This document shows, piece by piece, positions 47,383-48,291 of a stretch of 64,000 nucleotides of DNA (the stretch's first letter is position 1; the number at the start of each line of letters is the position of its first letter). The notes beneath the pieces were generated by a model. The model was not told the DNA's origin, did not search any database, and was given only the letters and a program-made list of their open reading frames with translations. Made by a program: the position numbers and the translations under genes. The stretch lies in the sequence record PQ666539. One strand, given 5' to 3'. The DNA is from Shigella phage sb1.

Positions 47383-48291
47383 TTAAAGGTCATTCAAAAG
47401 TTCATCCAGGTCCGTGTCATCAGCACTAGATGAACTGCCAGAGCTTGAGCTCATAAAATCATCTTCAGTTTTTGTATTGAAGTCGTCAACATTGAATGCA
47501 TCCAAATCATCAGCAACTGTATCAGCTTTCTTAGCGGCAGTCGCTGAGGCACCACCCATCGCAGCAGTTCCCATAACTTGACTGAATTTAGTGCTCAGTT
47601 CTTCAAACGATTTGAATTTATCTTTAGAAGTCATTTCAGAAAGGTCAACCAGTTGTTCGAACAGTTCTTTCTGGAAAGATTCATCATCAATGTTTGGAAT
47701 CGCAGATTGATTCAGGAATTTAGATTCGTCGTAGTTACTAAAACCAGAAACTTGTTTAACTTTCAGTACAAAGTTAGCACCTTCCCACGGACAAGTTACA
47801 TCAACCGGAGTTTCACCCATTTCAACATCAACTGCAATCATTGCATTGATTTTATCCCAGATTTTCTTACCAAAACGGTATTTAAATACTTTACCTTCAT
47901 TTTCTGGAGCAGCCGGGTCTTTTACTACAAGAATGTTAGCCCAGTAAGAAGTTTTACGTTTAACAAGACCGTACTCTTTATTGTCAGTGTTATACAAATC
48001 ATTTTTACTGATATACTGACATACTGGGCAGGAATCGTAATCACCGTGGGTAGATGAACATGTTTCAATATACCATTTACCATTTTTATTGAAACCGTGA
48101 TTTACAAGAATTGCGAATGGTGCTTGTTCATCATTTTTAGACGGAAGAAAACGAATTACTGCTTGACCGTTACCCGCATTATCGAGTTTCAGTTTCAACT
48201 CGCCTTTATCTTCAGAAGAAAAACCACCTTTATTTCCAGCCAGTTTAGCCATTTGCGCAGCGAGTTAAGCAGTAGATTTACGTTTAAACAT
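47383..48291 (-). pseudogene. 32: single-stranded DNA-binding protein gp32, interrupted by in-frame TAA at codon 9 (plus 48265..48267)
   Basis: ATG at 48289..48291 gives MFKRKSTA[12 protein letters not shown]...; 303 codons match T4 gp32. Confidence 0.9.

Follow-up and report, generated by a model that had tools for sequence, protein, structure and literature searches.

A premature stop in gene 32 of a T4-like phage sequence is most likely a sequence error within window-wide G:C>T:A noise

The gene 32 stop and its surroundings

[quoted passage not shown] The gene lies on the minus strand at 47383..48291 (302 codons plus the terminal stop), starts with the ATG at 48291-48289 and is broken at codon 9. 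The plus-strand letters at 48265-48267 are 'tta', giving a minus-strand TAA located 25 nt inside the coding sequence; the 5' end reads ATG TTT AAA CGT AAA TCT ACT GCT TAA CTC and the protein MFKRKSTA-stop-LAAQ. The initial annotation had reported a nonsense codon at exactly this place, and our reading of the minus strand confirmed it. The assignment to gene 32 was equally well founded, as the translation matched the full Pfam profile PF08804 (positions 1-208; E=6.6e-65, 219.5 bits against a cut-off of 26.8), and the remainder of the protein was 97.4% identical to pSs-1 gp32 over a gapless 302 aa. A reference alignment had been proposed as a check, and it showed GAA (Glu) at codon 9 in all five relatives compared (pSs-1, Ec_YwIITB1, sb2, T6 and T4), so that the change is a G>T on the coding strand (plus-strand C>A at 48267). 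None of 339 matching public phage records contained an exact copy of the 106 nt around the stop (best match 99.0%, 1 mismatch in 101 nt), and a 35-mer carrying the TAA was not found in viral, genome or metagenome contig collections. Exact-match searches with three proteins of the window gave no hit, nor did a second probe built on natural markers, and a gp23 marker probe reached only distant T4-like genomes, at 73-80% identity. Because the relatives have GAA and no exact match occurs among the 339 records, the stop is real in the given sequence and, by these comparisons, unique to it.

The TAA at codon 9 denies gp32 an uninterrupted full-length frame; the frame-1 translation nevertheless encodes the K3RKST7 (LAST) motif, as MFKRKST, and the zinc ligands (His and three Cys), within NHGF, ETCSS and SCPVC. 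The roles of both motifs in gp32 have been described (PMC535899). The gene also occupies its conserved T-even position, in the order frd.3 - 32 - 59 found in pSs-1 and T4. The stop was accompanied by further changes in the protein: codon 32 (48196..48198, minus strand) carried a private TGG>TTG change (G>T; Trp>Leu) where all relatives have Trp, and the other differences were K68N and A249S (both G>T) and M214L and K258T (both A>C).

Directly 5' of the ATG lie UUAAA repeats and a pseudoknot, in line with the earlier statement that the stop sits just behind the translational operator. The unstructured A+U-rich part of the operator (48292..48330, minus strand), with its UUAAA/UAAA repeats and the Shine-Dalgarno GGA, was intact, and its segment over the ribosome-binding site, AAUUAAAUUAAAUUAAAAAGGAAAUAAAAAUG, was the same as in T4. 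The pseudoknot (48331..48363, minus strand) is of the T2/T6 type; its stems were assigned after what we take to be the arrangement of the T2 gene 32 pseudoknot. Both stem 1 arms were unchanged, and the 3' arm of stem 2 carried a private G>U (plus-strand C>A at 48332). When the stem 2 hairpin, rather than the whole pseudoknot, was folded, this change weakened its predicted stability from -11.4 to -4.7 kcal/mol with the loss of two closing pairs. The gene 32 operator is described in PMC535899 and PMC3014915, the latter citing the NMR structure of the T2 gene 32 pseudoknot. Three private coding-strand G>T changes (Glu9>stop, Trp32>Leu and the stem 2 change) fall within about 210 nt near the gene 32 start, and the substitution process has damaged operator and gp32 indiscriminately. 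Compared with the T4 gene 32 system, the window shares the gene order and the UUAAA repeats, and differs in the frame broken at codon 9, the stem 2 G>U mismatch and several changed conserved residues. An Rfam search of the leader returned no family, only chance-level matches. Two further features of the leader were observed. A private A>C lies at 48364, just 5' of stem 1, and the operator contains an extra AATTA (UUAAA-repeat) unit, common to T4 and absent from pSs-1, Ec_YwIITB1, sb2 and T6, which looks like natural variation in repeat number within the gp32 binding region.

If the stop were real, translation would halt after eight residues. The longest remaining frame (47383..48252, minus strand; 289 aa) starts at Met14, and no Shine-Dalgarno sequence was found upstream of this codon. 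A hypothetical product restarted there would be without the K3RKST7 motif and the N-terminal segment for cooperative binding; the N-terminal ~20 residues, with K3RKST7, are needed for cooperative binding to single-stranded DNA (PMC535899), and this binding serves both replication and autoregulation. Restart at Met14 was rejected on these two grounds, and the pattern found across the window makes the question moot.

In-frame stops and lost starts across the window

The window extends from the gene 18/19 region to motA and makes up the right-hand 64 kb of a Tequatrovirus genome; in gene order it follows pSs-1, Ec_YwIITB1 and sb2, to which it is collinear (95.7-96.3% identity). We mapped the 89 annotated coding sequences of pSs-1 onto it. 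The results revealed 29 in-frame stops in 20 of the 89 genes (23 TAA, 3 TAG and 3 TGA) and essentially no frameshifts. By source codon, 18 stops came from GAA or GAG and 3 from GGA (G>T), 4 from TCA and 3 from TAC (C>A), and 1 from TTA (T>A). Thus 28 of the 29 were a single G>T or C>A step away from a codon conserved in the three relatives, none of the 29 arose from CAA, AAA or TGG, the route that transitions or A>T changes would take, and T4 had the non-stop base at all 29 positions.

On the plus strand, stops were found in the gp22 scaffold protein at codon 25 (TCA>TAA, 5097..5099) and codon 115 (GAA>TAA, 5367..5369), in the major capsid protein gp23 at codon 274 (TTA>TAA, 6672..6674), the sole stop not derived from a G:C>T:A change, in uvsW.1 at codon 11 (GAA>TAA, 14130..14132) and in gp51 at codon 102 (GAA>TAA, 16664..16666). 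Further along the same strand, gp27 was broken at codon 194 (GGA>TGA, 17689..17691) and codon 341 (GAA>TAA, 18130..18132), gp29 at codon 65 (GGA>TGA, 18952..18954) and gp48 at codon 67 (TAC>TAA, 20739..20741). The tail-fibre gene 34 contained four stops, at codons 371 (TCA>TAA, 51772..51774), 394 (GAA>TAA, 51841..51843), 681 (GAA>TAA, 52702..52704) and 1185 (GAA/GAG>TAA, 54211..54213), followed by one each in gp35 at codon 209 (GAA>TAA, 55164..55166) and gp36 at codon 190 (TCA>TAA, 56285..56287).

Minus-strand genes were affected in the same way. In addition to gene 32, stops occurred in uvsY at codon 8 (GAA>TAA, 15196..15198), an alt.-3-like ORF at codon 93 (TCA>TAA, 22641..22643), an alt paralogue at codon 178 (GAG>TAG, 24504..24506), a 30.4-like ORF at codon 57 (TAC>TAA, 30391..30393), a cd.2-like ORF at codon 22 (GAA>TAA, 34742..34744) and the spanin gene pseT.3 at codon 29 (GAA>TAA, 38072..38074). 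Two stops interrupted alc, at codon 135 (GAG>TAG, 38251..38253) and codon 73 (GAG>TAG, 38437..38439), and three interrupted rnlA, at its last codon, 374 (TAC>TAA, 38720..38722), codon 183 (GAA>TAA, 39293..39295) and codon 132 (GGA>TGA, 39446..39448). In nrdA, codons 124-125 had changed from GAAGAA to TAATAA, giving two adjacent stops (43452..43457). Start and stop signals were lost as well: the cd.2-like ORF had lost its start (ATG>ATT, 34805-34807, minus strand), as had gp34 (ATG>CTG, 50662..50664, plus strand), and the stop of gp51 had become CAA within its TAATG overlap with the gp27 start (TAA>CAA, 17108-17110, plus strand). At about 62940 on the minus strand, a single T>A abolished the overlapping ATGA start/stop of two small ORFs in the arn region.

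The first reading of the locus had implied a notable lesion particular to the essential, autoregulated gene 32. This part did not survive, since 29 stops in 20 genes, about 220 missense changes and lost starts are spread over the whole window. A phage with this sequence cannot be viable and propagate, as the broken genes include those of gp22, gp23 and gp32 and of four baseplate and three tail-fibre proteins, and with stops of all three kinds in many genes no single suppressor could rescue it.

An unselected excess of G:C>T:A changes

Private substitutions were counted for each genome from a MAFFT alignment of the window with pSs-1, Ec_YwIITB1 and sb2; T4 served as an outgroup and was left out when private sites were defined. 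The window (1..64000) contained 292 private G:C>T:A changes (C>A 150, G>T 142), equal to 1.25% of its G:C pairs, compared with 30 in pSs-1, 72 in Ec_YwIITB1 and 63 in sb2. Private transitions numbered 554 in the window, 496 in pSs-1, 557 in Ec_YwIITB1 and 481 in sb2. The transition count of the window is therefore normal, and G:C>T:A was the only class in excess (292 vs 30-72 in the relatives). Reverting the G:C>T:A changes alone cleared every in-frame stop except gp23 codon 274.

The coding effects of this class were distinct from those of the transitions. The G:C>T:A changes fell at codon positions 1, 2 and 3 in numbers of 106, 101 and 72, and comprised 31 synonymous, 220 missense and 28 nonsense changes (89% non-synonymous), whereas 402 of 534 window transitions lay at codon position 3 (75%) and 415 of 534 were synonymous (78%); the transitions show normal purifying selection. 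As a random model, we reconstructed the ancestral coding sequence and imposed G>T or C>A on each of its G:C sites. Against this model, the observed synonymous, missense and nonsense counts of 28, 190 and 23 did not differ significantly from the expected 22.6, 189.9 and 28.5 (chi-square P = 0.30), and the split by codon position fitted as well (P = 0.15). Among the 257 G:C>T:A sites that could be aligned to T4, T4 had the window's base at 4 (1.6%), whereas it did so at 16-25% of the sites in the transition and A:T>T:A classes. The generic marks of unselected error were thus found together: random coding effects (P = 0.30) and changes missing from the relatives and shared with T4 at only those 4 of 257 sites.

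The changes were spread over the whole window and showed no preferred orientation. All 4-kb bins were affected (0.7-2.3%), no flanking-base preference was seen (NGN trinucleotide rates 0.5-2.0%), and there was no strand bias (C>A 150 vs G>T 142), no sense/antisense bias (1.26% vs 1.28%) and no strand-coordinated run of neighbouring changes (runs test z=-0.34). The absence of these three asymmetries led us to reject mutagenesis linked to transcription or to the replication strand. The distribution was mildly over-dispersed (about 1.4), with 16 pairs of changes within 10 nt against 8 expected (P = 0.006), which shows that the process was not perfectly independent from site to site.

Other sources of broken genes would have left different traces. 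Depurination with the A-rule was rejected because it should raise A:T>T:A at least equally, and this class, which is natural variation, had only 120 sites, mostly at codon position 3. Long-read or homopolymer error was rejected because frameshifts are essentially absent, and pseudogene decay because indels and transitions are not in excess and the transitions remain under normal purifying selection. A side observation concerns the private G:C>A:T changes of the window, 32% of which were non-synonymous, compared with 14% in pSs-1, 26% in Ec_YwIITB1 and 22% in sb2; a smaller, second unselected component of this kind is consistent with noise of the cytosine-deamination type.

Origin of the changes

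The gene 32 stop belongs to a set of about 290 unselected changes by which 20 genes are broken, and its most likely origin is therefore an error of sequencing or DNA damage. We put the probability that the codon 9 TAA is a sequence error, and not a heritable feature of the living phage, at roughly 88%; in the actual phage, codon 9 is almost certainly GAA (Glu9) and gp32 is intact. The absence of selection on the G:C>T:A changes, together with normal selection elsewhere, means that no selected replication took place after the changes arose; their source is the DNA sample, the library or base-calling, or else the record itself. In this reading a single substitution process has acted across the whole window, turning about 1.2% of G:C sites into T:A whatever their strand or context. 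It created stops where it struck GAA, GAG, GGA, TCA or TAC codons, gene 32 codon 9 being one of 28 such events, and its result is unfiltered by natural selection. The likeliest physical cause would be guanine oxidation, in which 8-oxoG pairs with A, or a comparable miscall specific to G, either of which would have entered the consensus where, for instance, coverage was very low or very few damaged templates had been amplified. A record corrupted after sequencing would look no different.

C>A/G>T changes are the known mark of 8-oxoG that arises while libraries are prepared (Costello et al. 2013, PMC3616734). The window resembles that artefact in the class of change, in its occurrence in both orientations, in the lack of selection and in its absence from relatives. 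It differs in that the published artefact, induced by shearing, favours CCG>CAG and does not reach an allele fraction of 20%, whereas the changes here are context-free and stand in the consensus; the CGG trinucleotide, the equivalent of CCG>CAG, showed no enrichment (1.17% vs 1.25% on average). Given the missing context and the consensus-level changes, the specific wet-lab cause may be a variant of the 8-oxoG scenario or something else acting on G:C pairs.

An unlikely alternative is that the changes are real in the sequenced DNA molecule or molecules but belong to a dead genome. A phage particle or population might, for example, have been damaged in storage or heavily mutated by guanine oxidation, when it replicated under oxidative stress or when its host lacked 8-oxoG repair (such as mutM mutY), and amplification of a single genome or of very low input would then have fixed the lesions in the assembly. 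Equal orientations fit 8-oxoG on either strand, the changes sit at consensus level, the weak local clustering fits molecule-level events, and the small unselected G:C>A:T component (32% vs 14% non-synonymous in pSs-1) resembles general DNA damage. Even so, nonsense and missense changes are undepleted, so that no replication under selection can have followed them, 29 stops of three kinds in essential genes exclude a propagating lineage, and a library artefact would leave the same pattern in the sequence. Slightly less probable again is a real T4-like genome that was captured dead after guanine oxidation in vivo had mutated it massively, at about 1.2% of all its G:C pairs. If this were true, it would represent a natural or host-inflicted lethal oxidative hypermutation of phage, amounting to roughly 750 changes per genome if the remaining genome is alike.

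T4 gene 32 nonsense mutants are a classical genetic tool, and an early stop in an essential gene whose remainder is gp32-like could suggest a genuine conditional-lethal ochre mutant grown on a suppressor host, in which Glu9>ochre abolishes gp32 unless it is suppressed or translation restarts at Met14. We consider this very improbable. Classical T4 amber and ochre mutants likewise have a nonsense codon in an essential replication gene, but in them a single defined stop, or a few of the same type, stand in an otherwise wild-type genome, whereas the window has 29 stops of three types in 20 genes, about 220 unselected missense changes and lost starts. Moreover, gp32 additionally carries W32L, K68N, A249S, M214L and K258T, a Met14 product would be without K3RKST7 and the cooperativity segment, and no tRNA gene, and hence no suppressor tRNA gene, was found within the 64-kb window. 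Stop-codon reassignment or programmed read-through, with in-frame stops decoded as sense, could account for many in-frame stops without frameshifts but is the least credible reading of all, because three stop types would have to stand for five amino acids (Glu, Gly, Ser, Tyr and Leu) as dictated only by G>T/C>A reachability, the same codons still end genes, the missense changes are equally unselected, and the positions are non-stop in the relatives and T4.

The error reading has practical consequences. As an instance of window-wide unselected G:C>T:A noise, the gene 32 stop is not a real biological feature, and nothing about gp32 autoregulation, suppression or translational restart can be learned from it. 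Its value is that of a data-quality flag: findings of stops, missense changes and lost starts in the window should be weighed against a G:C>T:A noise of about 1.2%, other broken-gene findings in the window probably share the same cause, and annotation of the sequence as it stands would give about 20 falsely split or truncated genes.

Escherichia phage Ec_YwIITB1 (PQ356294.1) and Shigella phage sb2 (PQ666540.1), the two public genomes closest to the window at about 96% identity, seem to suffer from the same problem in weaker form. In both, the private G:C>T:A changes were flat by codon position (27/20/22 and 22/17/20, respectively) and included three nonsense changes each, and the annotation breaks up essential genes: that of Ec_YwIITB1 splits gp23, hoc and nrdB and truncates frd, and that of sb2 splits gp34 and truncates the tail sheath. 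The excess was four to five times below that of the window (72 and 63 vs 292), and gene 32 was intact in both.

The layout of the window also differs from T4 in several respects. The segG gene that T4 has between genes 59 and 32 is absent (48292-48395), as are the introns with I-TevI and I-TevIII in td and nrdB (44387-45244 and 40335-41510) and mobE, segD and segE; this homing-endonuclease-poor layout is shared with the relatives. In the alt region, where T4 has one alt gene and the remnants alt.-1 and alt.-2, the window resembles pSs-1 in having two full-length tandem alt (ADP-ribosyltransferase) paralogues (22983-27095, minus strand), which share about 41% identity.
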